35,301 nt of DNA. Origin: an uncultured Dehalococcoidaceae bacterium. GTDB taxonomy: Bacteria > Chloroflexota > Dehalococcoidia > Dehalococcoidales > RBG-16-60-22. Positions 13,056-33,023 of this stretch are shown here, one piece after another. The stretch covers positions 1 to 35,301 of the forward strand of contig CAZOMF010000002.1 of NCBI GenBank assembly GCA_964580635.1, given 5' to 3'. The position numbers and the translations under genes are program-made. The notes beneath the pieces are model-generated. The model saw nothing but the letters and a program-made list of their open reading frames with translations, was not told the origin of the DNA and ran no database searches. Within the stretch, counting starts at the first letter, position 1; every line of letters starts with the position of its first letter.

Positions 13056-13706
13056 CTAGTGGTCGAGGGAGACGATCCCGTTCTTGATGGCGTAGCGGGT
13101 GAGGTCGGCGCGGTTGTGCAGGTTGAGCTTACCCATGATGTTGGAGCGGTGGGTCTGCACGGTGGTGGGACTGAGGAAGAGCCGGGCGGCGATCTCCTGG
13201 TTATTGTAGCCTTCTCCGATCAGCTTCAGCACTTCCATTTCCCGGTTGGTGAGCCCGTCCTGCCGGTCCCGGTCCGCCGCCGGTCGGCCCCGCTCCAGGT
13301 AGCCGGAGAGGAGCTTCTTGGCCATGGTGGGGTAGAGGAAGACATCGCCGCGGGCGACCGCCTTGAGCGCCGAGATAAGCTCCTCCGAGGAGCCGCCCTT
13401 CACGAAGTAGCCGGACGCGCCGGCCTCCAGCGCGTTGAAAAAGTACTCGTCCTCCTCGTGCATGGTAAGGATGAGGACCTTGACATCGGGGTGCTCGTCA
13501 TTGATGCGGCGGGCGGCTTCCAGGCCATTGACGCCCGGCATGGTGATATCCATCAGCACGACGTCCGGGTGCAGCCGGACGACTGCTTCGAGGGCCTCCT
13601 CGCCGCTGGTGGCCTCGCCGACAACCTCGACGCCCTCGCAAGGCTCCAGCAAGGCCCGCAGCCCCTCCCGGACGATAACGTGGTCATCCACGATCAACAC
13701 CTGCAT
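13056..13706 (-). CDS. Response regulator, NarL/LuxR family (REC + GerE-type HTH)
   Basis: 216 aa. REC domain (MQVLIVDDH..., phospho-acceptor context VVLMDITMPG) and C-terminal HTH LTNREMEVLKLIGEGYNNQEIAARLFLSPTTVQTHRSNIMGKL. ATG at 13706 with AAGGAG upstream. Confidence 0.92.
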   Translation of the reverse strand: MQVLIVDDHVIVREGLRALLEPCEGVEVVGEATSGEEALEAVVRLHPDVVLMDITMPGVNGLEAARRINDEHPDVKVLILTMHEEDEYFFNALEAGASGYFVKGGSSEELISALKAVARGDVFLYPTMAKKLLSGYLERGRPAADRDRQDGLTNREMEVLKLIGEGYNNQEIAARLFLSPTTVQTHRSNIMGKLNLHNRADLTRYAIKNGIVSLDH

Positions 13707-13731: not shown

Positions 13732-15543
13732 TTATACCGTCGCCTGGTCCAGGGGGATGGTCACCGTCATGCGGGTGCCCGTCCCGGGGACGGACTCGAT
13801 GGCGAACGTGCCATGCAGGAGCGTCGTCCGCTCCTGCATGCCGAGGATGCCCAGCGACTGCTTGCCGGCCTTTTCCCGCAACACCTCTTCCACGTTGAAA
13901 CCGCTGCCGTTATCGGTGATCTCGATGCGGAGCACGCCGTCCGCCGCTTTCAGGTTGATGCTGACCTCGGTGGCCCCGGCGTGCTTGACGACGTTGTGGA
14001 CCGCCTCCTGGATGATGCGGAACACTGCTATCTCCGTGTCCGGCTTGAGGCGGGAACCGACGCCGGCGTGGTCGAAAGTGATGTTAAGGCCGATGTCCGA
14101 CTGGACGGTCGAGAGGTAGGCCCGCAGCCCGGCCACCAGGCCCAGGTCGTCGAGGGAGGAAGGCCGCAGGTCGAGGGTGAGTTTCCGCATCTCGGCGAGG
14201 GTCTTCGTCAATATGTCCTTCGTTTTCCCGAGCTTGGTTAGGAAGGCGGGTTTTTCGCTCTCGGCCATGTCCTCCAGGGACTCCACGTTCATGATAAGTC
14301 CGGTGAGGGTCTGGCCGTACTCGTCGTGGAGTTCCCGGGCGATGCGCTTGCGCTCCTGCTCCTGGGCGTCGATGACGTTCTCCAGGAGGCGCCCGCGCAG
14401 CTCTTCCTTGTCCTTGGCCGCCCGGTAGTTGTCCATGATCTCGTTGCGTGACCGGGCTATCTCCTGACGCATGGTATCGAAGGCGGCGCTCAGTTCGCCG
14501 ATCTCGTCGTTCCGCTGCCGGGGCACCTCGACGTCGTAGTCGTGGACCGACATTTTTCGGGCCGCCCGGGTCAGCTTCTTGATGGGGTCCACCACGGACC
14601 GGGTCAATGCCAGGAGCGGCAGTACCATGAACCCGAGCATGATGCCCCCGAAGGCGAGGAACTGGTGCTCCAGGTGGCCGGTCGCCGCGAAGGTCTCGTC
14701 CTCCGACTGCCGGATGACGACGCCCCATCGCGTCGCGGAGAGCGGGGCGAAGGCGAGCACGTCCTTGCGGCGCTGTACGCTGGAGCCGGCCGTGTGGCAG
14801 CGGTGGCAGGTGCCGACGGTCGGCTGGTGCTCGTCGATGAGGGCGGCGAAACGGCCCGGGTGGTCGCTCGTCTCGAACGGCGAAGGCGGCGTGCCGGGGG
14901 CGGTCCGCGCCAGCACGATGCCGTTACCGTCGATGATCTCCAGGTAGCCGGTCTGGCCGAGCGCAATGTCCTGCCCGAAGGTCTCGGTGCTTATCTGACT
15001 CACGTTCAATGAGCATGACAGCACACCGGCCACGCCGCCGGTGGCGCTCATGAAGGGAACGCTGACCAATACCGTGGGAACGGAGGAAAATACCCCGGAG
15101 ACCAGGTTGGAGATGTCCGGGTTGCCGGAGGTCAGCACTCGCTGGAAATCCGGCAGGTCGGCCAGTGTGGTGCCGGTGAGATTGCCGCCGGCCGGGTCGG
15201 CATCGATGATCTTACCGGTGCTGCCGGTGAGGAAGACGTGGTCGATATCGATATCGAGTTTGCCGAGGTCCGTCCGGAGCTCCTGCGCGAAGGACGTAAA
15301 GCGGGCGCCGTCCGGCAGGGACGGCTCGGACTGGATGGCCTCGCCGACGTGACCGAGGACGTAGTTCAGCGTCTGGTCGAGGCGCCCGGCCAGCACGCGC
15401 GCCAGTACGAGCCGCTCGTCGAGGGCGGTATCGACGCTCTGCCGGACCGACTGCACACCGAGCCAGCTGAACACCACCAGGACGATGAGCAGTGTGGCGA
15501 GGGCCAGCAGCATGACCCGTCCCCTGAGCGAGAGTGCCTTCAA
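13732..15543 (-). CDS. Sensor histidine kinase (HisKA_3 type) with a CxxCH motif in the extracytoplasmic sensor domain
   Basis: TM1 (res. 11-30), a roughly 255-aa outside domain, TM2, HAMP, H-box RIARELHDEYGQTL, and ATPase boxes HNVVKHA, DNGSGF and GILGMQER. CHRCH lies at residues 246-250. The start is either TTG at 15543 or ATG at 15513. Confidence 0.9.
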   Translation of the reverse strand: MKALSLRGRVMLLALATLLIVLVVFSWLGVQSVRQSVDTALDERLVLARVLAGRLDQTLNYVLGHVGEAIQSEPSLPDGARFTSFAQELRTDLGKLDIDIDHVFLTGSTGKIIDADPAGGNLTGTTLADLPDFQRVLTSGNPDISNLVSGVFSSVPTVLVSVPFMSATGGVAGVLSCSLNVSQISTETFGQDIALGQTGYLEIIDGNGIVLARTAPGTPPSPFETSDHPGRFAALIDEHQPTVGTCHRCHTAGSSVQRRKDVLAFAPLSATRWGVVIRQSEDETFAATGHLEHQFLAFGGIMLGFMVLPLLALTRSVVDPIKKLTRAARKMSVHDYDVEVPRQRNDEIGELSAAFDTMRQEIARSRNEIMDNYRAAKDKEELRGRLLENVIDAQEQERKRIARELHDEYGQTLTGLIMNVESLEDMAESEKPAFLTKLGKTKDILTKTLAEMRKLTLDLRPSSLDDLGLVAGLRAYLSTVQSDIGLNITFDHAGVGSRLKPDTEIAVFRIIQEAVHNVVKHAGATEVSINLKAADGVLRIEITDNGSGFNVEEVLREKAGKQSLGILGMQERTTLLHGTFAIESVPGTGTRMTVTIPLDQATV

Positions 15544-15614
15544 ACGCCTGAACAGAATGTACCCTCCAAATCCGTTCGTCGTCCCGGTCGTCCCGGGCGA
15601 ACCTTTTTCTAATT

Positions 15615-15643
15615 TACCACAATGTGGTAGTAATTTCTATAAT
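15615..15643 (+). promoter_or_regulatory. 15-bp perfect palindrome at the -35 position, plus a TATAAT -10, upstream of the decaheme cytochrome gene
   Basis: TACCACA A TGTGGTA (15615-15629), with TATAAT at 15638-15643. The hexamer at -35 distance (TACCAC) is a poor -35, as in activator-dependent promoters. The site lies in the divergent region between the kinase/regulator operon and the cytochrome gene. Confidence 0.4.
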
Positions 15644-15861
15644 GGAAGGGACTACTCGGGGCGTTGTACCCCGGCCTACTTTGGAAAATGTAGCCTCGAT
15701 TTACTCGTTGGAACGTATGCGCCCGAGCCCGGCTGTCGCGTAAAATAGGCATAAGCTAAGAGTGGACCGTCCCGGTACGTCCGGCAAATTTCCCGTTTGG
15801 CAAGGAAAATCCCTGTCCGTGCGTCACTGACGGTCACCGAGAAAGGTGGAAAGAGGTCGAT

Positions 15862-18102
15862 ATGAAGAAACGAATTTTATGGGGGGTAGTGGGGCTGGCC
15901 GGTCTGCTGGTAATGGCGCTGCTGATCGTCTCATGCCAGGGCTCGCCGGGGGCAACCGGTCCGGCGGGAGCGACCGGACCTGCGGGACCCGCCGGGCCAG
16001 CCGGACCTGCCGGCGCCACCGGCGCAACCGGTCCGCAGGGACCGGCCGGACCAGCCGGGCCTGCCGGCCCCATGGCTCCCGGCATCGATACCGGGGAGAA
16101 CGTCACCGTGCAGATTTCCCAGCCGGCCAACGGGCAATACCTGGCCGTGGGCGAAGCAGCGACGGTAACCGTGATGCTGAAGGACAACTACGGGAACGCC
16201 CTGTCCCGGTCGGACTTCAGCACGCTCAGTCTGTACCTCGATGGTCCGCAGGAGACCACCGAGACGGTTACGGCCGTAAAGATGCTCAACGCGAGCACCG
16301 ACCGCAGCCAGAACCCGCACTACTACATCGATCTCCTGACGAACCCTGACGCGCAGGAGAGCAACGGTGTGGTCACCTACAAGCTCCAGCCGGTCAGCGA
16401 CGAGCTGCCCGGGACCTACATGGTCGGCGTCAGGGCGATCAAGAAGGACAACGCGCTGGACCAGAGCTTCCCGCTCCAGAGTTTCCAGCTCGGTACCGCG
16501 ACGGTGGAGGCCCAGATAGTGAGCGCCGACAACTGCGGCAGCTGCCACTACGATGCCCTGAACGGGCAGTACTACCTTCATCACACCCAGGTCTCCAGCC
16601 GCAGCGCGGTCGGCAGCCCGGCCCTCGATTCGCTGCCGGTCGAGACCTGCAAGTTCTGCCACAACAACGACGGCTACGCCGCTTACCACGGCAATATCGA
16701 CGATCCCTCGGCCGGGACCGACGTCGAGACCCCGGATCCCATCGTGCGGCGCGTGCACGGCGTCCATATGGGCTCCCAGCTCGAGAACCCGTTCAATACC
16801 GATAACGCCACCGGCAACTTCGCGGACTTCACGTCCGTCGTGTTCCCGGCGAATGTGGAGAACTGCACCGCCTGCCATACCGATGACCGGTGGAAGACCG
16901 AGCCGTCCATCGAGGCGTGCGGCTCCTGCCACGACAACATCTGGTTCGGCCCGGTGGCCGATATGCCGGCCACGGCCGAGGCCCATCCCGGCGGCCCGCA
17001 GTCGAACGACCAGCTGTGCAGCGCCTGCCACCCGGCGGATGGCCCGTCGCCTTCCGTCTCTGGCGCTCACGACGTGACGCAGACGCTCGATACACTCGAT
17101 ATCACCATGACGCCGCCGGCCAACGGCAAGTACTACGTCGACGGCGAAGCACCCAAGATCACCATCAACGTCCTCGACGACAACGGCAACGTCGTCGACC
17201 CGACCATGGTCACGGATGCCAACTTCTCAGGGGCCGACCTCTTCGTCTACGGCCCGCGCGACATGGCCAGGCCGGTCCTCACCCTCGCTTCCCATGACCT
17301 CGGCACCGGCTACGACAATCCCAACGACCTGCTCGATCCCGCCGCGGACCCGGCCATCTCCGTGACGGCGTCCGGTATCACCTACCAGCTCGATGCCATC
17401 CAGGGTCTCGATGCCGGCACCTATATGGTGTACTCCTTCATCAACCCGAAGGAAGGCGCGGTCGCCGACATGACGGCCAACTCGGCCATCGGGCTGATCA
17501 ACTTCCAGGTCGGCACGGCCACCGTGGAACCCAAGATAGCCGAGAACTGCACCGACTGCCACGGCAATACCATCTGGCATGACGACGGCACCCATATCCA
17601 TCCCGAGCCGTTCGATACCGACTACTGTCTCGCCTGCCACGACTACGGCCGCGGCGGCACCGGCGACCTGTGGGCCGCCATCGGCGGGAACTCCACCAGC
17701 GGCTTCGCCGGCTACGGCGCCCAGCCGCTCTCGAACCGCGTTCATGGCGTCCACTACGGCGCCTACGTGGCTAATCCGGACTACATCACCTCCAACGGCG
17801 CCTTCTCGGACGTCGTCTTCCCGCAGGACATCAGGGATTGCCAGAAGTGCCACGATTCGAACACCTCCGGCGCCTGGAACTCCGACCCGAACCGGCTGGC
17901 TTGCAGCGGCTGCCACAACGATGGCACCGCCCTCGCTCACATGAATACGATGATCGATAACTTCAACCGGCTCGATCCGTACAGCGAGGACTCCACCCCG
18001 GCCTGCGAGATCTGCCACGGCGCCGATGCCGACTTCGCCCCGGCCAAGGTACACAGCATCGCCAACCCGTACGTACCGCCGTACCCGCGCGCCGGCGGCT
18101 AG
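15862..18102 (+). CDS. Lipoprotein decaheme c-type cytochrome with a collagen-like stalk (MtrC/OmcA-like domain layout)
   Basis: 746 aa. Signal peptide plus lipobox LIVS-C25. (G-X-Y)15 at residues 27-71. Ten CxxCH motifs at C225, 263, 335, 353, 386 and C563, 589, 660, 681, 715. The internal duplication is visible: QLGTATVEAQIV..NCGSCH vs QVGTATVEPKIAENCTDCH; RRVHGVHMG vs NRVHGVHYG; FTSVVFPANVENCTACH vs FSDVVFPQDIRDCQKCH. AAGAGG lies 5 nt upstream of the ATG. Confidence 0.9.
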   Translation: MKKRILWGVVGLAGLLVMALLIVSCQGSPGATGPAGATGPAGPAGPAGPAGATGATGPQGPAGPAGPAGPMAPGIDTGENVTVQISQPANGQYLAVGEAATVTVMLKDNYGNALSRSDFSTLSLYLDGPQETTETVTAVKMLNASTDRSQNPHYYIDLLTNPDAQESNGVVTYKLQPVSDELPGTYMVGVRAIKKDNALDQSFPLQSFQLGTATVEAQIVSADNCGSCHYDALNGQYYLHHTQVSSRSAVGSPALDSLPVETCKFCHNNDGYAAYHGNIDDPSAGTDVETPDPIVRRVHGVHMGSQLENPFNTDNATGNFADFTSVVFPANVENCTACHTDDRWKTEPSIEACGSCHDNIWFGPVADMPATAEAHPGGPQSNDQLCSACHPADGPSPSVSGAHDVTQTLDTLDITMTPPANGKYYVDGEAPKITINVLDDNGNVVDPTMVTDANFSGADLFVYGPRDMARPVLTLASHDLGTGYDNPNDLLDPAADPAISVTASGITYQLDAIQGLDAGTYMVYSFINPKEGAVADMTANSAIGLINFQVGTATVEPKIAENCTDCHGNTIWHDDGTHIHPEPFDTDYCLACHDYGRGGTGDLWAAIGGNSTSGFAGYGAQPLSNRVHGVHYGAYVANPDYITSNGAFSDVVFPQDIRDCQKCHDSNTSGAWNSDPNRLACSGCHNDGTALAHMNTMIDNFNRLDPYSEDSTPACEICHGADADFAPAKVHSIANPYVPPYPRAGG
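15940..16074 (+). repeat. Collagen-like G-X-Y triplet repeat (15 triplets) inside the cytochrome gene
   Basis: GSP GAT GPA GAT GPA GPA GPA GPA GAT GAT GPQ GPA GPA GPA GPM. Nearly every copy uses different synonymous codons (ggt ccg gcg / gga cct gcg / gga ccc gcc / ggg cca gcc ...). Confidence 0.9.
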
Positions 18103-18130: not shown

Positions 18131-18165
18131 GGGGGGTGGCCCAGCGGGCCACCCCCCGTCTTTTA
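18131..18165 (+). terminator. Intrinsic terminator after the decaheme cytochrome gene
   Basis: GGGGGGTGGCCC agc GGGCCACCCCCC (12-bp stem) followed by GTCTTTTAT. Confidence 0.85.
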
Positions 18166-18310: not shown

Positions 18311-20080
18311 ATGTCCTACCAGATACTGCTCTCGGTGATGAGCCCTGAGACCGGAGTGAAGAAAGCCCCCGGCGCCCCGCCGCCCGGAATGGGTGCGCCG
18401 GCCAAAGGAAAAGCGACCAGGGCCAAACGGCTCGATACGCTGGAAGGCAAGACCGTCTACCTGGTGGATACCGGCTTCGGCGGGGGCTATAACTTCTTCG
18501 TGCAGCTCCAGAAATGGTTCCAGGAGCATATGCCATCCGTCAGGACCGTCCGCAAGCGCAAGCCGGGCAACCTGTTCCGGGACGATAACGACACCCTCTG
18601 GGAGGAGATCAAGCAGAAGGGCGATGCCGCGGTCGTCGGGGTGGCCGGCTGACCGGGCTGCGTGACGGCGGTCGCCGCCAGCCACACCAAGCTCGAACAG
18701 ACCTACGGTGTCCCCGTGGCCCCGCTCTCCACCTACCAGTTCCAGACGGTGGTCCAGGGTAACCCGATGTCTTCCTCGCTGCCCTTCGTGTACACGCCGC
18801 ACCCGGTCATCGGCCTGTCTCCGGAGGCGCTCGACGCCTACATAATCGGCGAGGACCCGGACACCGGGAAGACCGTCATCGACGAGATCATCGATGTCCT
18901 CACAAAACCGGTCGAACGCAACAGCGGGAAACCCGCCGCCTCGGCCTCCGGCGAACCGGCAGCGACCGGGACCACGCTCGGCCCGGACACCGAGGACAAC
19001 CTCCAGCGCCTGTTCTACGAGCGGGGCTGGACGGACGGCCTGCCCGTCATCCTGCCCACCGAGGAGCGCGTCCGGGCGATGCTGAAGGGCACCAGCGCCG
19101 CCCCGGACGAGGTCGTGGCCGAGCAGTTCTCGTTCGCGACGCGGGAGATGATACAGTACACCGTCGAGCACTTCGCGGTCATCGCGGTGATGGCCGGCGC
19201 CCGGCCGGAGTACTTCCCGGTCATCCTCGCCATCGGAGCGACCAAGCAGAGCTCGCTCATGCCCTCCACCACCCCCTTCGAGGCGATGCTGCTCGTTAAC
19301 GGTCCCGTCCGGCGGGAGATCGGCATGAACTGCGGCATCGGCGCCTACAGCGCCGTCAACATGGCCAACGCGGTGCTGGGCCGGGCCTGGACGCTGATGA
19401 GCATCGTCCACGGGTTCGCCAGGCCGCGGTCCACGCTGTGGAGTTCGCAGGGCAACAACCATACCTACAACAATATGTGCGCCGGCGAGAACGAGGAGGC
19501 GAGCGTCTGGGAACCGTTCCACGTTACCAAAGGCTTCACCGCCGAAGAGAGCGTCGTCAGCATTTTCCGGGGCTGGAGCTTCCTCAACAGCACCGGGGCG
19601 GCCTCCAAGCGCTCGCTCGGGGAGGAGCTGAACCTCCAGCTCGCCGTCATGCCGCCCGTTAACTCGTCGTGCACCATCATCATGGACCCGCTCGTGGCGA
19701 AGAACCTGAAGGAGAACGAGGGCTACGCCACGAGGCAGGACTTCACCGGATGGATGTCCGAGAATATCAGGATGCCGAACGGGCAGTTCTGGAAGACGGA
19801 CTACATCGATATGCTCGTCGCCTCCGAGGCGTACAAGGGCGTCGAACCCTACGCGTCCTGGAAAGCGCTCCCGGACGACGCCATGATAGCCCCCTACCAC
19901 AAGCCGGAGAACATCAATATCATCGTCGTGGGCGGCGAGACGAGCCCGCTCTGGAAGGTGGCGGACTACGGCTACTCCGGCAGTTCCTCCGTCGACCGCT
20001 GGCGACCGCTCGCCGCCGACGCGGACTGTCCCGACGGTTCCTGCGGTCTGTCAGACCCCGTGGGCGACTACGACGAGTAG
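18311..20080 (+). CDS. Predicted selenoprotein: U-x-x-C (UPGC) redox module fused to an uncharacterised ~450-aa domain; in-frame TGA at 18650-18652 read as Sec114
   Basis: Track ORFs 18311..18652 and 18662..20080 are in the same frame, separated only by TGA. The sequence across the junction is ...GDAAVVGVAG-U-PGCVTAVAASHTKLEQTYGVPVAPL.... The downstream part has no ATG or SD of its own. The paralog at 23216..24904 has a TGA at the aligned position (...LDTLIVAYGD-U-GSCTKYSLYNAISAEERGIPAVAV...). A hairpin with a GGUC apical loop starts 3 nt after the TGA. Confidence 0.75.
18656..18683 (+). other. Candidate bacterial SECIS hairpin for the TGA at 18650
   Basis: GGCTGCGTGACGGCGGTCGCCGCCAGCC. Lower stem is 18656-18659 with 18680-18683. 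Upper stem is GGC/GCC closing the apical loop GGUC (18670-18673). Further pairs are 18666-18677, 18664-18678 and 18662-18679, leaving a bulged U at 18663. The loop sits about 18-21 nt after the UGA. Confidence 0.4.
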
Positions 20081-20609: not shown

Positions 20610-21101
20610 ATGATGAACTTCAAAAACAATATCACCAGACGAGACTTTCTGAAACGTATCGTTATCGGCGGCGCCGGCGCCGTCGCCGCGGCCATCGCCA
20701 CGCCGCTCATCGGTTCGTTCCTCAGCCCCCTATGGCAGAAGAGCAAAAAACCGGCCATCGCGGTGGCCCATACTGACCAGATACCAGTCGGCACGCCGAC
20801 CTTTGTCCGCTTCGAAGAGCGCGCGCCGGACGGCTGGCTGGTGACGACGGAGAGCCTGGGCGTCTGGATACTCACCCAGGACGGTAAAAACTTTACCCTC
20901 TACGACCCGCACTGCACGCACCTGCGCTGCCCGTTCTACTGGGACGCTCAGAAGAAAACGTTCATGTGCCCGTGCCATGGCGGAGAGTTCGATATCGACG
21001 GCAACGTCATCGCCGGGCCGCCGCCCCGCCCGCTGGACCGCTGGGAGTTTACGATCCAGGACGGTGAAATCATCACGTCAGGGGAGATAATCAAAGGTTA
21101 A
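20610..21101 (+). CDS. Rieske [2Fe-2S] protein of a cytochrome bc-type complex, Tat-exported
   Basis: 163 aa. Twin-arginine motif TRRDFLK followed by a TM helix. Box I is CTHLRCP and box II is CPCHGGEF, including the disulfide cysteines typical of bc1/b6f Rieske proteins. Confidence 0.92.
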   Translation: MMNFKNNITRRDFLKRIVIGGAGAVAAAIATPLIGSFLSPLWQKSKKPAIAVAHTDQIPVGTPTFVRFEERAPDGWLVTTESLGVWILTQDGKNFTLYDPHCTHLRCPFYWDAQKKTFMCPCHGGEFDIDGNVIAGPPPRPLDRWEFTIQDGEIITSGEIIKG

Positions 21102-23129
21102 ATGGCTGAGCAAAAAAACAACGGCTGGGTTGAAGAGCGCCTATCGCTCAAAAAGCCCTGGGGATGGTTCCTAGACCGGAAAGTGCCGCGCACCGGGTGG
21201 GTGTATACCCTCGGCAGCGCTACGATGTTCGTGTTCATCATCCAGGTGATGACGGGCATCTTCCTGATGTTCAACTACTCACCGTCGCCGGACCACGCCT
21301 GGGACAGCATCAATTACATTATGACCAACGTGACCTTCGGCGCGTTCATACGGAGCATGCACTTCTACGCGGCCAGCGCCATGGTCATTCTCGTTATCCT
21401 GCACCTGGTGCGTGTCTTTTTCATGGCGGCCTATAAATACCCGCGCGAGCTCACCTGGGTCGTTGGCGTCGGGCTCCTGCTGCTGGTGCTCGGCTCGTCC
21501 TTTACCGGTTACCTGCTGCCCTGGGACCAGCGGGCTTACTGGGCTACCAACGTCGCCTCCGGCATCGCCGGTGAAACGCCGTTTATCGGTCACTGGGTAC
21601 AGGCCCTCCTCATAGGAGGGTCCCAGATAGGCACGGTGACGCTCACGCGTTTCTTTACCTTCCACGTCATCGTCATCCCGGCGCTGACCGCCGGGCTCAT
21701 CGGTCTCCACCTGATGATGGTGGTGCGCCAGGGCATCTCGGCCTCGCCCCGCAAGATGAAGGGTCAGATGCTGCCCGCCCAGACCGTGAAGGACGCCTAC
21801 GAAGCCGAATACGAAGCCAGCAAGAAGGACGGCGAGTCCTTCTTCCCCGGTACCTTGGCCAAGGATACCATCATGGCACTGGCGGTGGTAGGCGTCATCA
21901 TGCTGCTGGCCGCCCTCTTCCCGCATGTCAGCCAGGCCCCGGCGGACCCCACCAGCACGACCTATAACCCCCGCCCCGAGTGGTACTTCCTCTTCTTCTT
22001 CGAGTTCCTCAAGCTCTTCCCCGGCTCACTGGAGTCGGTGGCCGCGGTCCTGGTGCCCGCGCTCGCCTTCCTGCTGCTGCTGGCAGTGCCGTTCCTGAGC
22101 CGCGGCTTCCGGCGTACCTGGTCGAGCCGCAAGGTTTCCCTCTCCGTCGGCGGAGTGGTCGTGGCCGGGTTGCTCATCTTTGAGGTACTCGGCGCGGCAT
22201 CGGCCCCGGCGCGACCGGAGGTCGGCCTCACCGAGGTCCAGGTACAGGGGCAGCGCGTCTACCAGGAGGTTAACTGCGGCTACTGCCACACCATCAACGG
22301 CATCGGCGGCGCCGTCGGTCCCGACCTCTCCAATATCGCTTCGACGCTCACCCCGGACCAGATAAAAGCCTATCTCAGCAACCCGGACGCGATGGTGCCC
22401 AACACGCTCCATCCCAAGCTTCAGTTCACGCCGGACGAGCTGAACGAGCTGACCGCCTATCTCTCCACTTTGGGCGCGCCGGTAAGCTACAGCGCCCAGG
22501 CCCCGGGTCTCTTCGACAAATATTGCAGCAGCTGCCATGCCGTCAACGGCCAGGGCGGCACCATCGGGCCCGACCTGACCGATGTCGGCAGCCGGCACCC
22601 GCTGACCTTCATCGAATCGTTCATCAGCGATCCCGGTTCCGTGGTTACCGGCGCCAGCATGCCCGCCTTCCACGATAAGCTGACTCAGGACCAGATCAAC
22701 GATATCGCCGGCTATCTCTTCAGTCTCAAGAACAGCGCTGCCACGCCGACACCGACCGCGACAGCCACGACGCCCAGCCCGACGGCGACCACCACCACGA
22801 CGCCGACCATGACGACGACCAGCCATACGGCCACGACCACGCCGAGCCCGACTACTACGACGACCAGCCCCACGGCTACCACCACCACGACGACGGCCGC
22901 GATCGATGCCGCCGGTCTTTACACGCAGTATTGCGCCGGGTGCCACGGGGACAGCCGGCAGGGAGGTATCGGGCCGGCGCTGACGCCATCGATACTGGGC
23001 GGCCAGTCGATTTCGGAGATAACCGGCGTGATCACCCAGGGTAAAGAAAACATGCCGGGTTTCTCCAGTCTGTTAAGCGCCGACCAGATCGACGCCCTGG
23101 CCAACTACATACAGACCTCACAACCCTAA
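21102..23129 (+). CDS. Fused cytochrome b (b6-like) + subunit IV + three monoheme cytochrome c domains
   Basis: 675 aa. The ATG abuts the Rieske TAA. Helix B histidines are SMH-x13-H and helix D histidines are FH-x14-H (b6/Firmicute-type spacing). Qo-site motif PEWYF. Then CGYCH, CSSCH, a Thr/Pro-rich linker and CAGCH, each followed by an MP-type methionine ligand region. Confidence 0.9.
   Translation: MAEQKNNGWVEERLSLKKPWGWFLDRKVPRTGWVYTLGSATMFVFIIQVMTGIFLMFNYSPSPDHAWDSINYIMTNVTFGAFIRSMHFYAASAMVILVILHLVRVFFMAAYKYPRELTWVVGVGLLLLVLGSSFTGYLLPWDQRAYWATNVASGIAGETPFIGHWVQALLIGGSQIGTVTLTRFFTFHVIVIPALTAGLIGLHLMMVVRQGISASPRKMKGQMLPAQTVKDAYEAEYEASKKDGESFFPGTLAKDTIMALAVVGVIMLLAALFPHVSQAPADPTSTTYNPRPEWYFLFFFEFLKLFPGSLESVAAVLVPALAFLLLLAVPFLSRGFRRTWSSRKVSLSVGGVVVAGLLIFEVLGAASAPARPEVGLTEVQVQGQRVYQEVNCGYCHTINGIGGAVGPDLSNIASTLTPDQIKAYLSNPDAMVPNTLHPKLQFTPDELNELTAYLSTLGAPVSYSAQAPGLFDKYCSSCHAVNGQGGTIGPDLTDVGSRHPLTFIESFISDPGSVVTGASMPAFHDKLTQDQINDIAGYLFSLKNSAATPTPTATATTPSPTATTTTTPTMTTTSHTATTTPSPTTTTTSPTATTTTTTAAIDAAGLYTQYCAGCHGDSRQGGIGPALTPSILGGQSISEITGVITQGKENMPGFSSLLSADQIDALANYIQTSQP
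22737..22901 (+). repeat. Thr/Pro/Ala-rich low-complexity linker coding region
   Basis: Encodes AATPTPTATATTPSPTATTTTTPTMTTTSHTATTTPSPTTTTTSPTATTTTTTAA, between the second and third cytochrome c domains. Confidence 0.85.
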
Positions 23130-23215: not shown

Positions 23216-24904
23216 CTAGTACCGGACGTAATTCGGGACGACGTTCTTGTACTTTTTGACGAGCTTGTCCCAGTTCTGTGGGAACTCTATCTTCTGTATC
23301 TCGGCGCAACCCGGCGTCGGCACGCCGCCCATCGCGTGGGCGATGAACGAGCCTGGCCCGCCGGCCACGAGCACCCGGATCACCCGCGGGTCGCGGACGA
23401 GCGGCAGGGTATCGCCCTCGCGGGCGGTGACGTGCCCCTTGAAGAGCTTGGGTGCGCCCTGTCCCATCGCCCGTCCCCGCTGGGTCGCCGGCAGGCGCTT
23501 GTACTCGCAGATGAAGTCCCGGATGTCCTGCTTGGTCCAGCCGAAGGAGGCCAGCGTCTTGGCGTGGAGCGGCGGGAACATGATGGAGTAGCCGAAGCCC
23601 GGCACGATGTTGTCCAGCACGGACCGCATGATGCCGTCCTCGTCGTTGCTCGGCGGATAGTGCTGGACGTAAGACTGCGGGAAGGTCAGCATGAGGGTGC
23701 TGTCCTCGCGGCTGAAGCCGTACTCGGTGTGGAGCGGTTCCCAGGGGCTCTCCTCCTCGTTCTCCGGCATGACGGCGGTGTACTTCATCGGGTTGCCCAT
23801 GACGCCCATGTCCTCGATGCCCTTGCGGACGCCGCCGAGGTTCTTGATGACGAAGCCCAGCGCCCGTCCGATAGCCGCGTTGGCGATATTACCCGGGCTC
23901 AGCACGCCGGAGCTGCTGTTGAGGTTGATCTGGCCCCGGACGGGCCCGTTGACGGTCCAGAACGGCGCCCAGGAACCGGTGCTGACGCCGAAGGTAGTGA
24001 AGCCCTGGAAACCCATCTCCGAATCGAGCAGCAGCCGCGTCCCGGCCAGGATGACCGGCAGGTGGGTGGGCAGGGCGCCGGCCATGACGGCGTTGACGGC
24101 TACCTTCTCCACCGTCACCTTGCCCAGGCGCGGGATAAGCTTGCCGAGGAGCGTGTCCCGGGCGAGGTCCGTGCCCGTCAGCATCTCGGCGACGCGGTCC
24201 TCGGTCGGGGGGATGATGGGGAAGCCGTCCGTCCAGCCGCGCTGGTAGTAGAAGCGGTTGACGTCGTCGAGGCTGCCCTTGAAGACGAGCCGGCTGACCT
24301 TCTCCGTTTTCGCCGGGGCGGGCGAGCGCTCCGCCTCGGTGAGGGGCGTCACCGCTGCCTTGACGATGGCGTCCACGGCGAGCAGTGTGTTCTGTTCGAT
24401 GACGTCGAGCATGGTGGATTCCGGCGGCACCGTGGTGGGCACGAAGCGCACCCCCGGCATGGCCCGGCTCGAAGCGGCCGAGTGGGCGTCCTCGATGAAG
24501 CCGTCGTTGATGACGGCGACGGCCGGGATGCCGCGCTCTTCCGCGGAAATTGCATTGTACAAACTGTACTTGGTGCAGGACCCTCAGTCGCCGTAGGCGA
24601 CGATGAGGGTGTCGAGACCCTTGAGCCAGTCTTCGAACTTCTCCTTGTTGATGGATTCCGCCTCCGGCGTGTTCATCTGGGTCTCCTGGTACCAGGCGAA
24701 GGTGGCGTCCGGGTAGCGCCGGGAGAGCTCTTTTTCCAGCACGTCGAGCAGCGGCTTGGAGGCGCGTTTCCAGATGTGGTAGAGGCCGATGGTCTTGCCG
24801 GCGAGGTCGGCGGGGCGTTCAACAGTGAGGCCGCGTGGCGCCACCGGGTCGACCTCCGCCCAGGGACTGAGCGTTTCGTACGCGGGGGATGCGTTCTGTG
24901 GCAT
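23216..24904 (-). CDS. Predicted selenoprotein paralog: U-x-x-C (UGSC) module fused to the same uncharacterised domain; in-frame TGA at 24586-24584 read as Sec107
   Basis: Track ORFs 24584..24967 and 23216..24562 share a frame and are separated only by TGA. The true start is probably ATG at 24904 (MPQNASPAYETL), with GGAGGT 4 nt upstream. Blocks shared with the 18311 gene: GKT(V/I), D-x8-U-x-x-C, G(V/I)P(V/A), (Y/F)Y(E/Q)RGWTDG(L/F)P(V/I)I(L/P)PTE(E/D)RV, AV(I/N)AVMAGA, NGPVR, ENEE.S.WEP(F/L)H. Confidence 0.75.
24551..24577 (-). other. Weak candidate SECIS hairpin for the TGA at 24586
   Basis: On the minus strand: UGCA CCAA GUAC aguuu GUAC AA UGCA. Two 4-bp stems with an internal loop, starting 6 nt after the UGA. 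This stretch is unusually AT-rich for coding sequence here. There is no GGUC loop, so support is weak. Confidence 0.3.
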
Positions 24905-25059
24905 ACTTACCTCCTGATACGGGTTTGCGCAGCGTTCGCCCCGACACGCGGGGCGGCGCCTGTCCATTCATCATATACGATACGCAAGCGCACCGCCACC
25001 ATGCGTTGCCGTTATTCCGCGTTGTGAAACACACGCACGGAGCACGCGTTTTTTCGTAA

Positions 25060-25229: not shown

Positions 25230-26132
25230 ATGTCGAATGCAATACATGATTGGATGGTCAACTATACCCGCCAGACCGAGTGGATAGACCGACGCGGTCT
25301 TTTCCTCTGGGTGGCCTTTTTCTCCGGCACGCTCGGCGGCGGCCTCTACCTGGCGTCGCTCTATTTCAACAGCATCTGGGGCATGTTCGCCGGCTGGCTC
25401 ATCGTCGCCGTCATCAAGGGCGGCGCTCACATGATGGACCTCGGCAAGCCATGGCGCGCCTGGCGCATGGTGATGCGGCCCGGCTCTTCTTGGATGTCCC
25501 GCGGGCTCATCTTCGTATTTACCTTCATCGGCGCCGGCGCCGTCCAGCTCGCCCTCTCGCTCTGGCTGCCAGGCAGCGCCGCCGAGATCACCAGCAAGAT
25601 ACTGGCCGGCATGGCCGCCTTCGGCGTGGCCATCTACAGCGGCTTCGTGCTCAACACGGTCAAGGGCGTGCCCTTCTGGAACTCGGCCCTCCTGCCCATG
25701 CTCGTCGGCCTCTACGGCGTGCTCTGCGGGCTCGGCGTGATGATGGTCATCGGCCTCGCCGGCAGCAGCATCGACCTCACCCTCGCCGAGGGCGTCAGCC
25801 GCTACCTCATCTTCACCACTACCGCCCTCATCGCCGTCTATCTCTGGACGGCCGCCCGGCGCGGCCCCACCGGCCGGAACTCTGTCCTCCAGCAGGTCCG
25901 CGGCGAGCTGAAGACGGTCTTCTGGGGCGGCCTCGTGACGCTCGGCATCGTGGTGCCGGTCGTCATCGCCATCGTGAGCTTCTTCGTCAGCGAGGTATCC
26001 CCGGTGCTGCTTGTCATCGGCGTCGTCTCCGAGGTCGTCGGCGGGCTCTCGCTCGGCTTCTGCGTGCTCAAGGCCGGGGCTTACAAACCCCTCGTCGCCA
26101 GGCCCGCCCACAGCCGCCAGCCCGTTCGCTAG
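25230..26132 (+). CDS. NrfD/PsrC-like polytopic membrane protein (putative quinone-interacting anchor), orphan
   Basis: 300 aa with about 8 TM helices. The N-terminal pattern W..R.LFLWVAFFSGTLGGGLYL resembles the first helix of NrfD-family subunits; this assignment is by eye. GGAAGGAG lies upstream of the ATG. The gene has its own promoter and terminator, and no adjacent 4Fe-4S or catalytic subunit gene. Confidence 0.55.
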   Translation: MSNAIHDWMVNYTRQTEWIDRRGLFLWVAFFSGTLGGGLYLASLYFNSIWGMFAGWLIVAVIKGGAHMMDLGKPWRAWRMVMRPGSSWMSRGLIFVFTFIGAGAVQLALSLWLPGSAAEITSKILAGMAAFGVAIYSGFVLNTVKGVPFWNSALLPMLVGLYGVLCGLGVMMVIGLAGSSIDLTLAEGVSRYLIFTTTALIAVYLWTAARRGPTGRNSVLQQVRGELKTVFWGGLVTLGIVVPVVIAIVSFFVSEVSPVLLVIGVVSEVVGGLSLGFCVLKAGAYKPLVARPAHSRQPVR

Positions 26133-29212: not shown

Positions 29213-30196
29213 TTATTCTTTGGTGCGGAGTTGCGCTCCCCGCGAGGGCTCCTCCCGGCCGCTCCGGTACTTCTTCACGTACTCGTCGAAGTCCCAGGTG
29301 CTGAAGAACTTCTGCGCCGCCTTCCGGCCGGACTCGTAGAGGGCCTCGCTCTTTTCCTTCGTGATATCGAACTCGGTCGTCCGCACGCCGAGGGTGGGTA
29401 TGGCCACCGTCCGCACGAAGTCGTGGTCGGCGATGTAGCGGGCATCGTGGGCCTCCATCATGGCGCTGAAGAGTGCCGTCAACATGCTCACCGGTCCCTT
29501 GATATCGGCCGGTTCGCCGGCGTCCGGCTCGACGAGCTTGAACCCGATAGTCGGCCAGGTGGGCGCGTCCGCGGTGTCGAAGAGCCAGACGGGATAGTTG
29601 CTGAGGATGCCCCCGTCCACGATGTAGCTCTTGCGGCCCGTTGTGAGGTTCTTCAGCGTCGCCGGCTCGTAGAAGAACGGGATGCTCATGCTCATCCGTA
29701 CCGCGTCCGCCACGTTGAGGTCTTCCGGACGGCCGCCGTAGTCGCGGATATCGCCGGGCAGCACCAGCAGCCTGCCGAGCGTGATGTCCGAGGCAATCAC
29801 GTTGAGCTTGAACCGGTAGCGGTCCTCCGTCTCGCCGGGAATGAGCAGGTCCCCGAAGGTCGTGATCCCCTTGGCCGCGAGCAGGTCGCGGAGCCAGTCG
29901 TGGAAATAGTCGCCTTCGTAGATGCCCTTCTCGGTGATGAGGCTGATGACCGGACCGGCCAGGGGAATCCGGTCGACCGGACTGCCGTCCTTGAAGCGCC
30001 GGTAATCGAGTTTGCTCAGGATGTCGTGAAGCTCGGCCGCCTTATACCCGGCCGCCGCCAGCGCCGCGATGATGGCCCCCGCCGAGGTCCCGGCCAGGTT
30101 CTGCCACTCGACGTCCCGCTGCTCGGCCACCGCCAGCGCCCCGGCGAAGCCGATGCCCTTGACCCCGCCCCCTTCGAATACGCCGTCCGCTTTCAT
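29213..30196 (-). CDS. Patatin-like phospholipase
   Basis: Starts MKADGVFEGGGVKG (oxyanion GGGxKG). Nucleophile elbow GTSAG and catalytic Asp context IVDGGILSNYP. ATG at 30196 with AAAGGA upstream. The 16 extra codons in the track ORF are not needed. Confidence 0.88.
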   Translation of the reverse strand: MKADGVFEGGGVKGIGFAGALAVAEQRDVEWQNLAGTSAGAIIAALAAAGYKAAELHDILSKLDYRRFKDGSPVDRIPLAGPVISLITEKGIYEGDYFHDWLRDLLAAKGITTFGDLLIPGETEDRYRFKLNVIASDITLGRLLVLPGDIRDYGGRPEDLNVADAVRMSMSIPFFYEPATLKNLTTGRKSYIVDGGILSNYPVWLFDTADAPTWPTIGFKLVEPDAGEPADIKGPVSMLTALFSAMMEAHDARYIADHDFVRTVAIPTLGVRTTEFDITKEKSEALYESGRKAAQKFFSTWDFDEYVKKYRSGREEPSRGAQLRTKE

Positions 30197-30407
30197 GCTT
30201 GTCCTTTCATGGTTGCCACACCGTATGCAGAACGATGGTAACACGCTGCCGCTGGATTGTAAACGGAGTTTTGTCGCATTTTTCGGTCCGTTTTTCAGGT
30301 TGCGGCGCCCCGGATGCCGTGGTATAGTACCACAATACCCGGCACGGGGGGCGGCGCCTGGTAGTCATGTTCGCAGCATCCGTGCCGGAACGTGTCCGGA
30401 CGGTCGT

Positions 30408-33023
30408 ATGGAAGACGAGACCACCAGACTGAAGAACGGCTCGCGGGTGGCCATCGTCGGCGGCGGCCCGGCCGGGAGCTTTACCGCCCTCTACCTGCTG
30501 TCCTACGCGCAGCAGCTCGGCGTCCAATTGTCCGTCACCGTCTTCCAGGACCGCGATTTCGACCAGAAAGGCCGCGCCGGCTGCAAGGGCTGCGCCGGCG
30601 TCCTCTCACTCATGTTCCTCCGCAACCTGGGAGACATCGGCCTGCGCGTGCCGGACGGCATCATCCAGCATAACATCAACGATTACGCCGTCCACAGCCC
30701 GTACTCGTCCATCGCCATCGCCAACCCGGAACGGGACGTGCAGATCGTGAGCGTCTATCGCGGGGCCGGTCCGCAGCGGGGACCGGAGCCGGTGCAGTCG
30801 TTCGATGCCTTCCTCCTCCGCCAGGCCGCGGCGCGCGGCGCCCGCGTGGTGCCGCTGGCGGTCACCGCCGTCCACCTGGACGGCCTGGCCCGGGTCACCG
30901 CCGGCGGTGAGACCGGGGAGTACGAGCTCGTCGTGCTGGCCAACGGCGTCAACGGCCCGCCGATTGCCATTACCGGCGTCGACTACCTCCCTCCGCCGAC
31001 CGTCACCATGACCCAGAGTGAGCTCTACATCGGCCGCGACGAGGTGGCGGCCCGGCTCGGGGACGCCGCCCACGCCTTCCTGCTGCCCCGCACCGGCATG
31101 GTCTTCGGGACGCTCGTGCCCAAGGGGCCGTACGTGACTGTCTCCATCCTCAACGGTCCGGGCGGCACCACTACCTTGCCGGACTTCCTGCGGCACGGGC
31201 TCGTCAAGGGCGTACTGCCCTCGACCGGCGAACCCGTCTGCGGCTGCCGTCCCTCAGCCGTCGTCGGCCCGGCCCGTACCTGCTACGCGGACCGGTTCGT
31301 CGCCATCGGCGATGCCGCCGTCTCCCGTCTCTACAAGGACGGTACCGGCACCGGGCTGCTGGCGGCGCGGCAGCTCGCCTGGACGGCGCTCCACCACGGT
31401 GTTTCCGCCGGTGACTTCCGCCGCCACTACGAGCCTTTCAACCGCTCCATACGCCGCCACAATGCCTGGGGCAAGGCACTCTTCGCGGTCAACAACGTCG
31501 TCAAGAACTCGCGCACCTTCCTGCTCGCCCAGCCGCGCCTTATCGGGGACGAGGTGCACCGCGCCGGCGGTAAGCAGCCGTTCACCCGGGCCGCCTGGGG
31601 CATGTTCACCGGGTCGTACCCCTACGGGCAGATCGCCCGTATGGTGCTCTCGCCCGTCTCGCTGGCGAGGATGGCGGGCGCCGTCGCCCGGGAGGTGCTG
31701 CGCCTGCCGGTACGCCGACGCGAGACGGGACCGCGGAAGATACGCGTCGGCGTGACGCGGGTGCTCATTCTGGGCAGCGGCTTCGGCGGCGCCCACGTGC
31801 TGCGGCGGCTCGTGCCCGGCCTCAACCTCAACGAGAACGTCCGCACCACCATGATCAGCGACGAGAACTTCCTCCTCTTCTCGCCGCTCCTCCACGAGGT
31901 CGCCATGGGCCGCATCGAGTCCCGCCACGTGGCCTATCCCATCCGCCGCCTCCAGTGGCGCGACCGCTTCGATCTCGTTCAGGCCTCCGTCAACCGCATC
32001 GACCTCGCCGCGGAGCAGGTGGAGACGGACGTCGGTACCTTCGGCTATGATTACCTCGTCCTTGCCCTCGGCGGCGTGGCCGACCTCTCCGGCCTCAAGG
32101 ACCCGGCGCAGAAGGCCAACGTCTTCACCCTCAAGACGCTCTACGATTCCCGCCTCATCCGCAACCACCTGATCCGCATGTTCGAGAAAGCCTCCATCGA
32201 GACCGGCACCGAGCGCCAGAAGCAGCTCCTCACCTTCGTCATCAGCGGCGCCGGCTACATCGGTCTCCAGCTCGTCACCGAGCTGCGTGACTTCATCACC
32301 CACAGCCTCGCCCGGTACTACAAGGCGGTGGATACCCACAACATCCGTATCCTCCTGGTGGAGAAGGAGAAGAAGCTCATCGCGGGCCTGGATACCCGCC
32401 TCGGGGCCTATGCTTTCAAGCAGTTGCAGAGGAAGGATATCGAGATCCGCTTTCAGTCCCGGCTGACCCGCGTCTGGGACGACCGCGTGGAGATCAACGG
32501 TAAGGAGATAATACCAACCTCGACGGTCATCTGGCTGTCCGGGCAGGTCGCCAGCCCCCGCATCGCCGAGCTCGACGTGCCTAGGGACAACATCGGCCGG
32601 GTGCTCGTCGACCAGAACCTGGAGGTGGAGGGCCATCCGCGCGTCTTCGCCCTCGGCGACTGTGCTCATTTTGACGATCCCGTCTCCGGACAGCCCGCGG
32701 CGCGCCGGGCCCACATCGCCGTCCGCCAGGCGAGGACGGTCACCCGCAATATATTGGCCTCCATCCGCGGCGTCGAGAAGAAGCCCTACCGTTACAAGCG
32801 GCCGGTGGACCTCGTTTCCCTCGGGGTCTCCCAGGCCATGTTCCGCTGGCGTAAGCTTCGTCTCTACGGCTGGCCGGCCCGCCTGCTCTGGCTGGCGAGC
32901 GACGTGATGCTGGTGACAGGGGCCTATAACCGCGTGCGCATTATCATCGACTGGACCTCCGCCATCTTCTTCGGGCGGGACACGTCCTATATCAAGACGA
33001 AGATAGGCAAGTCGGGCCAGTAG
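30408..33023 (+). CDS. Fusion flavoprotein: FAD-dependent (geranylgeranyl-reductase-like) domain + type II NADH dehydrogenase-like domain
   Basis: 871 aa from ATG at 30408 (MEDETTRLKNGSRVAIVGGGPAGS...GDAAVS...). It continues with no stop into RVLILGSGFGGAH ... FVISGAGYIGLQ ... ALGDCAHF ... and an amphipathic C-terminal tail typical of NDH-2. The first 113 codons of the track ORF overlap the patatin gene and were discarded. Confidence 0.8.
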   Translation: MEDETTRLKNGSRVAIVGGGPAGSFTALYLLSYAQQLGVQLSVTVFQDRDFDQKGRAGCKGCAGVLSLMFLRNLGDIGLRVPDGIIQHNINDYAVHSPYSSIAIANPERDVQIVSVYRGAGPQRGPEPVQSFDAFLLRQAAARGARVVPLAVTAVHLDGLARVTAGGETGEYELVVLANGVNGPPIAITGVDYLPPPTVTMTQSELYIGRDEVAARLGDAAHAFLLPRTGMVFGTLVPKGPYVTVSILNGPGGTTTLPDFLRHGLVKGVLPSTGEPVCGCRPSAVVGPARTCYADRFVAIGDAAVSRLYKDGTGTGLLAARQLAWTALHHGVSAGDFRRHYEPFNRSIRRHNAWGKALFAVNNVVKNSRTFLLAQPRLIGDEVHRAGGKQPFTRAAWGMFTGSYPYGQIARMVLSPVSLARMAGAVAREVLRLPVRRRETGPRKIRVGVTRVLILGSGFGGAHVLRRLVPGLNLNENVRTTMISDENFLLFSPLLHEVAMGRIESRHVAYPIRRLQWRDRFDLVQASVNRIDLAAEQVETDVGTFGYDYLVLALGGVADLSGLKDPAQKANVFTLKTLYDSRLIRNHLIRMFEKASIETGTERQKQLLTFVISGAGYIGLQLVTELRDFITHSLARYYKAVDTHNIRILLVEKEKKLIAGLDTRLGAYAFKQLQRKDIEIRFQSRLTRVWDDRVEINGKEIIPTSTVIWLSGQVASPRIAELDVPRDNIGRVLVDQNLEVEGHPRVFALGDCAHFDDPVSGQPAARRAHIAVRQARTVTRNILASIRGVEKKPYRYKRPVDLVSLGVSQAMFRWRKLRLYGWPARLLWLASDVMLVTGAYNRVRIIIDWTSAIFFGRDTSYIKTKIGKSGQ

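Follow-up and report, generated by a model that had tools for sequence, protein, structure and literature searches.

A stand-alone MtrC/OmcA-type decaheme cytochrome with a predicted lipid anchor and a proposed collagen-like stalk in a Dehalococcoidia-like Chloroflexota bacterium

A 35,301-bp stretch of DNA (64% G+C) from an uncultured Dehalococcoidaceae bacterium (assembly GCA_964580635.1, contig CAZOMF010000002.1, positions 1 to 35,301, the contig being complete), referred to here as the window, carries at 15862..18102 on the forward strand an open reading frame (ORF) for a 746-residue decaheme cytochrome. The ORF begins with ATG, has a Shine-Dalgarno-like AAGAGG 5 nt upstream, and has a third-position G+C content (GC3) of 0.86, similar to that of other genuine genes of the window. 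Profile, structural, and comparative evidence leads us to propose, with moderate confidence, that its product is an MtrC/OmcA-type wire for extracellular electron transfer that is lipid anchored, is raised on a collagen-like stalk, and works without a porin. A specialist would readily accept the family assignment; the stalk, and the co-variation of stalks between paralogs, were unexpected. The stalk is the protein's most unusual feature.

The protein contains 21 cysteines, 20 of them in ten CxxCH heme motifs and the last at position 25 (C25). The motifs start at residues 225, 263, 335, 353, and 386 in a first cluster and at residues 563, 589, 660, 681, and 715 in a second, and neither CxxCK nor a longer-spaced heme motif variant occurs in the 746 residues. 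This is exactly the arrangement given in a preliminary description of the gene, which had read two clusters of five motifs (residues 225 to 390 and 563 to 719), a heme-free stretch ahead of each, and sequence blocks common to the two halves. The heme-free stretches measure 136 and 147 residues, and both are beta-rich in the AlphaFold2 model described below. Domain I (16090..16497, forward strand; residues 77 to 212) is heme free, with strands over residues 80 to 210 at a predicted local distance difference test (pLDDT) score above 90. Domain II (16498..17076; residues 213 to 405) holds the first five CxxCH motifs and candidate distal histidines at 241, 299, 302, 375, and 403. Domain III (17077..17517; residues 406 to 552) is again heme free and of beta type, contains no cysteine, and does not have the ∼130-residue insertion present in longer (850- to 930-residue) relatives. 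Domain IV (17518..18102, including the stop codon; residues 553 to 746) holds the other five motifs and histidines 573, 628, 631, 693, and 731. The two halves of the protein are 29% identical over 302 residues (E = 3e-33), showing that the order beta, pentaheme, beta, pentaheme derives from a tandem duplication.

Profile searches and comparison of the predicted structure with MtrC both revealed a relationship to the MtrC/OmcA family, in line with what the preliminary description had proposed from the domain layout. Pfam PF22113 (MtrC/MtrF domains II/IV) matched at 97.7 bits against a cutoff of 30 (E = 7.5e-28), best over residues 561 to 732 and profile positions 7 to 176 of 176. NCBIfam TIGR03507 (OmcA/MtrC family) matched best over residues 214 to 457, with an E value of 1.4e-60 and a score of 205.6 bits that narrowly missed the 209.3 cutoff. 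When the protein was queried against PDB sequences with phmmer, the only cytochrome match was a marginal one to MtrF (E = 0.002). A family profile built from 54 relatives reached MtrF (3pmq) at 3.7e-14 and aligned the heme motifs of both pentaheme domains.

Three-dimensional modeling was used to compare folds. An AlphaFold2 model built on the alignment of the 54 relatives (pLDDT, 81.7; predicted template modeling score, 0.77) consists of a signal helix, a disordered segment at residues 26 to 70, a beta domain at 80 to 210, a helical heme domain at 222 to 402, a second beta domain at 410 to 550, and a second helical heme domain at 563 to 730. Foldseek searches of this model against the PDB returned Shewanella baltica MtrC (6qyc; E = 5.9e-20; template modeling [TM] scores, 0.49/0.58) and OmcA (4lmh; E = 3e-18; TM scores, 0.51/0.55), each aligned over the full length, domain I included. 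These were the sole full-length matches; the next were unrelated immunoglobulin-like domains (E of ∼1e-6; TM score, 0.11). Judged by profiles and predicted fold, the protein truly belongs to the MtrC/OmcA fold family, although it has diverged from the other members.

Ten histidines that lie outside the CxxCH motifs, five per heme domain, are invariant across the 54 relatives. They are consistent with bis-His electron transfer hemes, with no obvious open catalytic heme. A catalytic role as a nitrite or hydroxylamine reductase was considered and is unlikely, since the protein has neither a CxxCK nor another variant motif and each heme has a candidate sixth ligand.

The N-terminus (15862..15936, forward strand) shows the features of a Sec-type signal peptide with a lipobox: residues 1 to 24 comprise MKKR and a hydrophobic core, modeled as a helix over residues 2 to 23, and end in I-V-S before C25, the predicted lipidation site. 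The lipobox cysteine reported earlier closes the signal peptide and is the sole cysteine outside the heme motifs. The segment LLVMALLIVSC25 matches a PROSITE-type lipobox rule; it does not match a stricter Gram-positive pattern because position −1 is serine. Among relatives that bear a collagen-like run, the lipobox cysteine is kept immediately upstream of that run.

In which membrane such an anchor would sit depends on the host. The glutamine synthetase III encoded in the window is 75 to 79% identical to proteins of Dehalococcoidales, Dehalogenimonas, and a "Chloroflexota bacterium," and the nearest named relatives of both the decaheme protein and a cytochrome b-c fusion encoded nearby belong to Chloroflexi and Dehalococcoidia. 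These gene relationships show the host to be a Dehalococcoidia-like Chloroflexota bacterium. According to Sutcliffe 2010/2011, as cited in PMC5808234, Chloroflexota are held to be monoderm, with no lipopolysaccharide and no BamA. The host therefore probably has no outer membrane, which bears out the earlier impression of a Gram-positive-like genome, and the lipid anchor would then lie in the outer face of the cytoplasmic membrane. If instead the host were diderm or the contig mis-assigned, mtrA/mtrB-type genes could lie elsewhere and the protein would be an ordinary outer membrane MtrC/OmcA paralog. Only 35 kb was examined, the gene also stands alone, with no adjoining MtrA-like gene, in many Verrucomicrobiota and Planctomycetota relatives, and in a rough neighbor-joining tree monoderm and diderm phyla are interleaved, which suggests that the family has moved between phyla by horizontal transfer. 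Against this, the best named relatives across the contig are from Dehalococcoidia and Chloroflexota, a related genome (L078) retains the same 20-kb synteny, and a lipobox followed by a collagen-like run is the typical Chloroflexi form of the family. We regard a diderm or mis-assigned origin as very improbable.

Between the predicted anchor and domain I lies an uninterrupted collagen-like (Gly-X-Y)15 run (15940..16074, forward strand; residues 27 to 71), which the preliminary description did not mention. Proline occupies X in 10 triplets, and Y is mostly alanine or threonine. With the glycine frequency of the remaining protein, the probability of fifteen in-phase glycines arising by chance is ∼1e-16. 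The run scores above the cutoff of the Pfam Collagen model, the phmmer search also matched the BclA exosporium collagen (1wck) and vertebrate collagen chains, and NCBIfam gave weak matches of the run to the Scl and Lcl adhesins. At the DNA level the run consists of degenerate 9- and 18-bp tandem repeats. Its pLDDT is low, as expected when such a segment is predicted as a monomer.

Comparison with relatives indicates that what is conserved is the presence of the run, while its sequence varies. The L078 ortholog, which is 82% identical overall, has 14 triplets; the indel in this region is exactly one triplet, and all substitutions fall at X or Y. Of the 120 best database relatives, about 50 have a single uninterrupted run of 12 to 87 residues directly after the lipobox cysteine. 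When species-representative genomes were compared, runs of 27 residues or more were present in 16 of the 22 copies labeled Chloroflexi and in none of the 25 from Verrucomicrobia; a few copies from Myxococcota and Gallionellales bear such runs as well. In ∼1.3 Mb of loci scanned, such Gly-X-Y runs were almost confined to these cytochromes.

A rival reading is that the run is just a flexible tether of low complexity that does not assemble into a triple helix, in which case the protein would be a monomeric lipoprotein between membrane and surface layer (S-layer), acting as an electron store or as a relay to soluble acceptors or other envelope cytochromes. The match to Pfam PF01391 (Collagen) barely passes, at 27.8 bits against a cutoff of 27.2, there are only 15 triplets, the model shows no structure over them, no trimerization domain was recognized, and some Chloroflexi copies lack a collagen run and are anchored in the membrane simply by their N-terminus. 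However, the glycine phase is strict over 4 to 29 triplets in dozens of relatives, ortholog indels and substitutions respect the triplet as described above, and some relatives carry charged triplets, such as GER, GDK, and GKA, that are typical of stable bacterial collagens. A merely flexible linker does not need strict glycine periodicity; a triple-helical stalk, which implies a trimer, is therefore favored, and we consider the tether reading unlikely.

Two tandem decaheme paralogs are frequent in Chloroflexi genomes, where they were seen at six of the loci compared. The pairs usually combine a long form (∼870 to 970 residues, with the domain III insertion) and a short form (∼740 to 770 residues), one pair of 739 and 805 residues being an exception. 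Within a genome, the lipobox-plus-collagen N-termini of tandem paralogs are nearly identical. In four such pairs the two stalks measure 45/42, 42/36, 36/39, and 51/57 residues and are alike in sequence, whereas the bodies of the same proteins fall in distant branches of the family tree. A permutation test of stalk likeness gave P values of 0.01 to 0.09, varying with the pool used. Near-identical N-termini on such distant bodies point to gene conversion or co-assembly.

In the Shewanella systems, MtrC and OmcA are thought of as dependent on MtrAB. We found no MtrA/DmsE-like cytochrome and no MtrB/PioB porin when the 20 genes of the 35-kb window were scanned with Pfam and NCBIfam, in agreement with the preliminary description; the same scan of a positive control, a Gallionellales locus (L059), detected a DmsE-family decaheme protein (265.9 bits) and an MtrB/PioB protein (369.8 bits). 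Besides the decaheme gene, only two ORFs in the window bear CxxCH motifs, a sensor kinase with one and the cytochrome b-c fusion with three. Scanning the window for Rfam families and tRNAs gave no hits.

The decaheme gene appears to be monocistronic. In the 318 bp (15544-15861) that separate it from the divergent sensor kinase gene, a consensus scan picked out a promoter-like site (TTACCA, an 18-nt spacer, and TATAAT; 15614..15643, forward strand), which agrees with the consensus at 10 of 12 positions and is no more than a weak pattern match. A terminator-like hairpin (18131..18157, forward strand), with a 12-bp stem of which 11 pairs are G-C and a T run after it, starts 29 nt past the stop codon.

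The sensor histidine kinase (dCache_1-HAMP-HisKA_3-HATPase by Pfam; 13732..15543, reverse strand) is encoded divergently from the decaheme gene, next to its partner, a NarL/LuxR-type response regulator with Response_reg and GerE domains (13056..13706, reverse strand). Its extracytoplasmic dCache_1 domain contains at residue 246 a C-H-R-C-H heme c motif that had not been noted earlier. We collected 570 sensor-domain representatives with E values of <1e-3; among 150 distant representatives, clustered at 50% identity, 124 have CHxCH at this position, so the kinase is probably a c-heme sensor. This conservation also suggests a sizeable family of c-heme Cache sensors. We considered whether the heme-motif kinases generally adjoin decaheme genes; three contexts of other members show none, and the link is therefore specific to this lineage. 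Kinase/regulator pairs of the same general type adjoin decaheme homologs at six of the loci compared, L078 among them. The kinase is a candidate for sensing redox state and regulating the decaheme gene.

A second candidate partner, overlooked in the preliminary description, begins 2.5 kb downstream of the decaheme gene. A Rieske iron-sulfur protein with a twin-arginine (TAT) signal (20610..21101, forward strand) is followed by a 675-residue protein in which a b6-like cytochrome b is joined to three monoheme cytochrome c domains (21102..23129, forward strand; Pfam and NCBIfam), whose heme motifs are at residues 392, 475, and 611. The third cytochrome c domain is set behind a ∼50-residue linker made almost entirely of threonine, proline, and alanine (∼nt 22740-22895), and the 78%-identical ortholog has a linker of the same kind. 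L078 retains the gene order response regulator, sensor kinase, decaheme, Rieske, cytochrome b-c. Rieske/cytochrome b genes occur within 10 kb of decaheme homologs in three other loci of unrelated lineages, from Pirellulales, Phycisphaerales, and Myxococcales genomes, compared with ∼0.6 expected by chance among 77 loci (a rough estimate). An operon joining the decaheme gene to the Rieske/cytochrome b genes was considered and rejected because of the strong terminator and separate promoter-like sites. The Rieske protein would serve as part of a membrane electron input module, and the cytochrome b-c fusion is a candidate electron donor or acceptor for the decaheme protein.

We propose that the decaheme protein is acylated at C25 and held at the outer face of the cytoplasmic membrane. 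Its 15 triplets would form a collagen-type triple helix of ∼13 nm (45 residues at ∼0.29 nm each), which would trimerize the protein and lift three decaheme heads as far as the S-layer or wall, or across it. At that position the heads would pass electrons to or from insoluble or macromolecular partners, among them Fe(III) or Mn(IV) oxides, humic substances, or other cells. The protein would thus be a terminal wire, exposed at the surface, for extracellular electron transfer that does not need an MtrAB porin module. The most likely source of electrons would be quinol oxidation in the membrane, for which the Rieske/cytochrome b complex is the best candidate encoded nearby; its third cytochrome c domain, on its Thr/Pro tether, could reach a head held off the membrane. 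The adjacent two-component system probably controls expression, and its heme-motif sensor would couple expression to the extracytoplasmic redox state.

The same protein could also run in the opposite direction and take up electrons from extracellular donors, such as Fe(II), minerals, reduced humics, or a partner cell. The Rieske/cytochrome b complex would receive these electrons at its cytochrome c domains and either send them downhill to an oxidase or reductase or drive them uphill by reverse flow. Gallionellales are an order of Fe(II) oxidizers, and clear relatives of the decaheme protein lie within a classical cluster of MtoA (DmsE family) and MtrB/PioB genes in a Gallionellales metagenome-assembled genome. 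The neighboring complex is of the Rieske/b6-like type; bc-type complexes normally feed high-potential acceptors and are the entry point for reverse flow in Fe(II) oxidizers such as Acidithiobacillus. On the other hand, no oxidase, Cyc2, or carbon fixation gene is present within the window. MtrC-type proteins are reversible in vitro, and the sequence therefore cannot decide between export and uptake. Uptake as the physiological direction seems to us a doubtful prospect, though one to be kept in mind.

A more elaborate version of our proposal, which we put forward only tentatively, is that monoderm Chloroflexota have re-engineered MtrC/OmcA into a free-standing "electron antenna." An anchor and a triple helix would hold three heads ∼4 to 25 nm above the cytoplasmic membrane, co-evolving paralogs might form heterotrimers, stalk length would be tuned to the envelope, and a tethered cytochrome c arm would replace the porin-cytochrome conduit. 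If true, this would be a new architecture for moving electrons across a cell envelope and the first collagen-cytochrome fusion.

Several observations weigh against the proposal of a lipid-anchored, stalked wire. The protein falls just short of the TIGR03507 cutoff, and it is just 14 to 15% identical to the solved MtrC and OmcA structures, with TM scores of ∼0.5 to 0.58. It also fails two features associated with the family, the MtrAB partnership and a disulfide in domain III: the Shewanella proteins are reported (Edwards et al. 2015) to have a conserved CX8C-type disulfide there that is tied to flavin binding, and the decaheme protein has no spare cysteine to form one. Fifteen triplets are short for a stable bacterial triple helix, and Pfam and NCBIfam scans recognized no trimerization domain. 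Collagen-like runs are not confined to monoderms, being present in certain diderm members of the family. Because a collagen stalk does not conduct, electrons would need a carrier to cross the ∼13 nm. The Rieske/cytochrome b genes are linked to the decaheme gene by proximity only, with a probable selenoprotein gene and a 530-bp gap in between, and neighbor clustering found no universally conserved partner gene across 19 Chloroflexi loci, where the recurring neighbors were two-component systems (5 loci), molybdopterin enzymes (3 loci), and UGSC proteins (3 loci). Heme attachment, lipidation, trimerization, and surface exposure are each inferred.

The family extends well beyond this host. At least 2,875 database proteins match it, and relatives occur in more than 580 species genomes from Chloroflexota, Verrucomicrobiota, Planctomycetota, Myxococcota, Nitrospirae, and Gallionellales. 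Their database labels vary among "hypothetical," "cytochrome c3 family," and "OmcA/MtrC family," the domains having already been recognized. At six Verrucomicrobiota loci a multiheme pair recurs near the decaheme homolog, usually upstream on the opposite strand: a seven-heme protein of ∼265 to 315 residues and a nine-heme protein of ∼560 to 750 residues. At one of the six, the nine-heme protein is accompanied instead by two four-heme proteins. The pair may be a different conduit.

What is known is thus the family and its domains; what is undescribed, as far as we could find, is the monoderm form with a lipid anchor and a collagen stalk. Among open-access papers and preprints we found no description of collagen-like multiheme cytochromes or of Chloroflexota MtrC/OmcA homologs. 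A survey of mtrCAB clusters (Baker et al. 2022; PMC8805035) listed no Gram-positive occurrence and remarked that the proteins would need adapting to a cell without an outer membrane. Ardenticatena, the one electroactive Chloroflexi isolate studied, uses a seven-heme protein, and multiheme mentions in a Chloroflexi-wide genomic preprint are limited to very large proteins.

These findings matter because no terminal wires of microbial metal respiration are better understood than MtrC and OmcA, which are regarded as outer membrane proteins, whereas in Chloroflexota the decaheme head alone is widespread and is joined to a different tether. Stand-alone decaheme genes would be missed by surveys that require a complete mtrCAB cluster, such as that of PMC8805035. 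The finding bears on possible mineral and humic respiration by Dehalococcoidia and other Chloroflexota that are abundant in the subsurface, soil, and groundwater. Stalk length offers a simple, testable structure-function variable, and the arrangement may provide a design for displaying multiheme wires on a Gram-positive chassis.

Other genes of the window are of separate interest. Two paralogous UGSC-family genes, one directly downstream of the decaheme gene (18311-20080, forward strand) and one at 23216-24967 (reverse strand), flank the Rieske/cytochrome b genes. Each has an in-frame TGA, in the contexts VAG-TGA-PGC (18650-18652) and YGD-TGA-GSC (24584-24586), and both are probably selenoprotein genes. 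Large C-terminal parts of both have no family match. The pair is also present in L078, and a UGSC homolog lies close to a decaheme gene in one further Chloroflexi locus. Between the second UGSC gene and a URO-D/MtaA-like methyltransferase-family gene is a stand-alone NrfD-like membrane protein gene (25230-26132, forward strand) with no adjoining NrfC-type iron-sulfur partner, an arrangement also found in L078. A 984-residue ORF (30069-33023, forward strand) joins two flavin-dependent oxidoreductase modules: an N-terminal one resembling geranylgeranyl reductases and flavin adenine dinucleotide (FAD)-binding proteins, and a C-terminal one of NDH-2/SQR-like type that matches NCBIfam "Nterm_to_SelD." This ORF overlaps the end of a patatin-like gene on the opposite strand, leaving its start codon uncertain.

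Among known systems, the closest counterparts are MtrC, OmcA, MtrF, and UndA of Shewanella (6qyc, 4lmh, and 3pmq), with which the window protein shares ten CxxCH motifs, the alternation of two pentaheme and two beta domains, and a lipoprotein signal. It differs from them in sequence (14 to 15% identity), in lacking the domain III disulfide and a nearby MtrAB partner, in the collagen-like stalk after its anchor, and in that the anchor would sit in the cytoplasmic membrane of a probable monoderm. The decaheme proteins of the Gallionellales locus L059 belong to the same family (tblastn, 39% identity, E = 2e-86; 397 bits on TIGR03507) and are likewise lipoproteins with a short Gly-rich or Gly-X-Y stretch past the cysteine. 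There, however, two OmcA/MtrC-family genes lie directly downstream of a DmsE-family decaheme and an MtrB/PioB gene, completing a conduit across the outer membrane, and the window has neither of these partners.

In proposed role, the protein resembles OcwA of Thermincola potens and OmhA of Carboxydothermus ferrireducens. OcwA has nine hemes and is related to the NrfA/octaheme families. Searches with the window protein against Pfam and PDB sequences, and by Foldseek, returned neither OcwA nor OmhA. Parts of PMC6703420 and PMC7829351 present OcwA and OmhA as terminal surface multiheme reductases of Gram-positive bacteria, that is, as terminal electron transfer proteins at the surface of cells without an outer membrane; no collagen-like stalk is reported for them in those parts.

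In its stalk, by contrast, the protein resembles BclA of the Bacillus anthracis exosporium, Scl1/Scl2 of Streptococcus, and Lcl of Legionella, all of which place an uninterrupted Gly-X-Y run rich in proline, alanine, and threonine beside a globular head at the cell surface. Triplet number varies among the decaheme relatives, as is known for BclA. In the window protein, however, the run has just 15 triplets and a triple helix is proposed for it, the anchor is a lipobox and not an LPXTG motif or the exosporium basal layer, and the head is a decaheme cytochrome.

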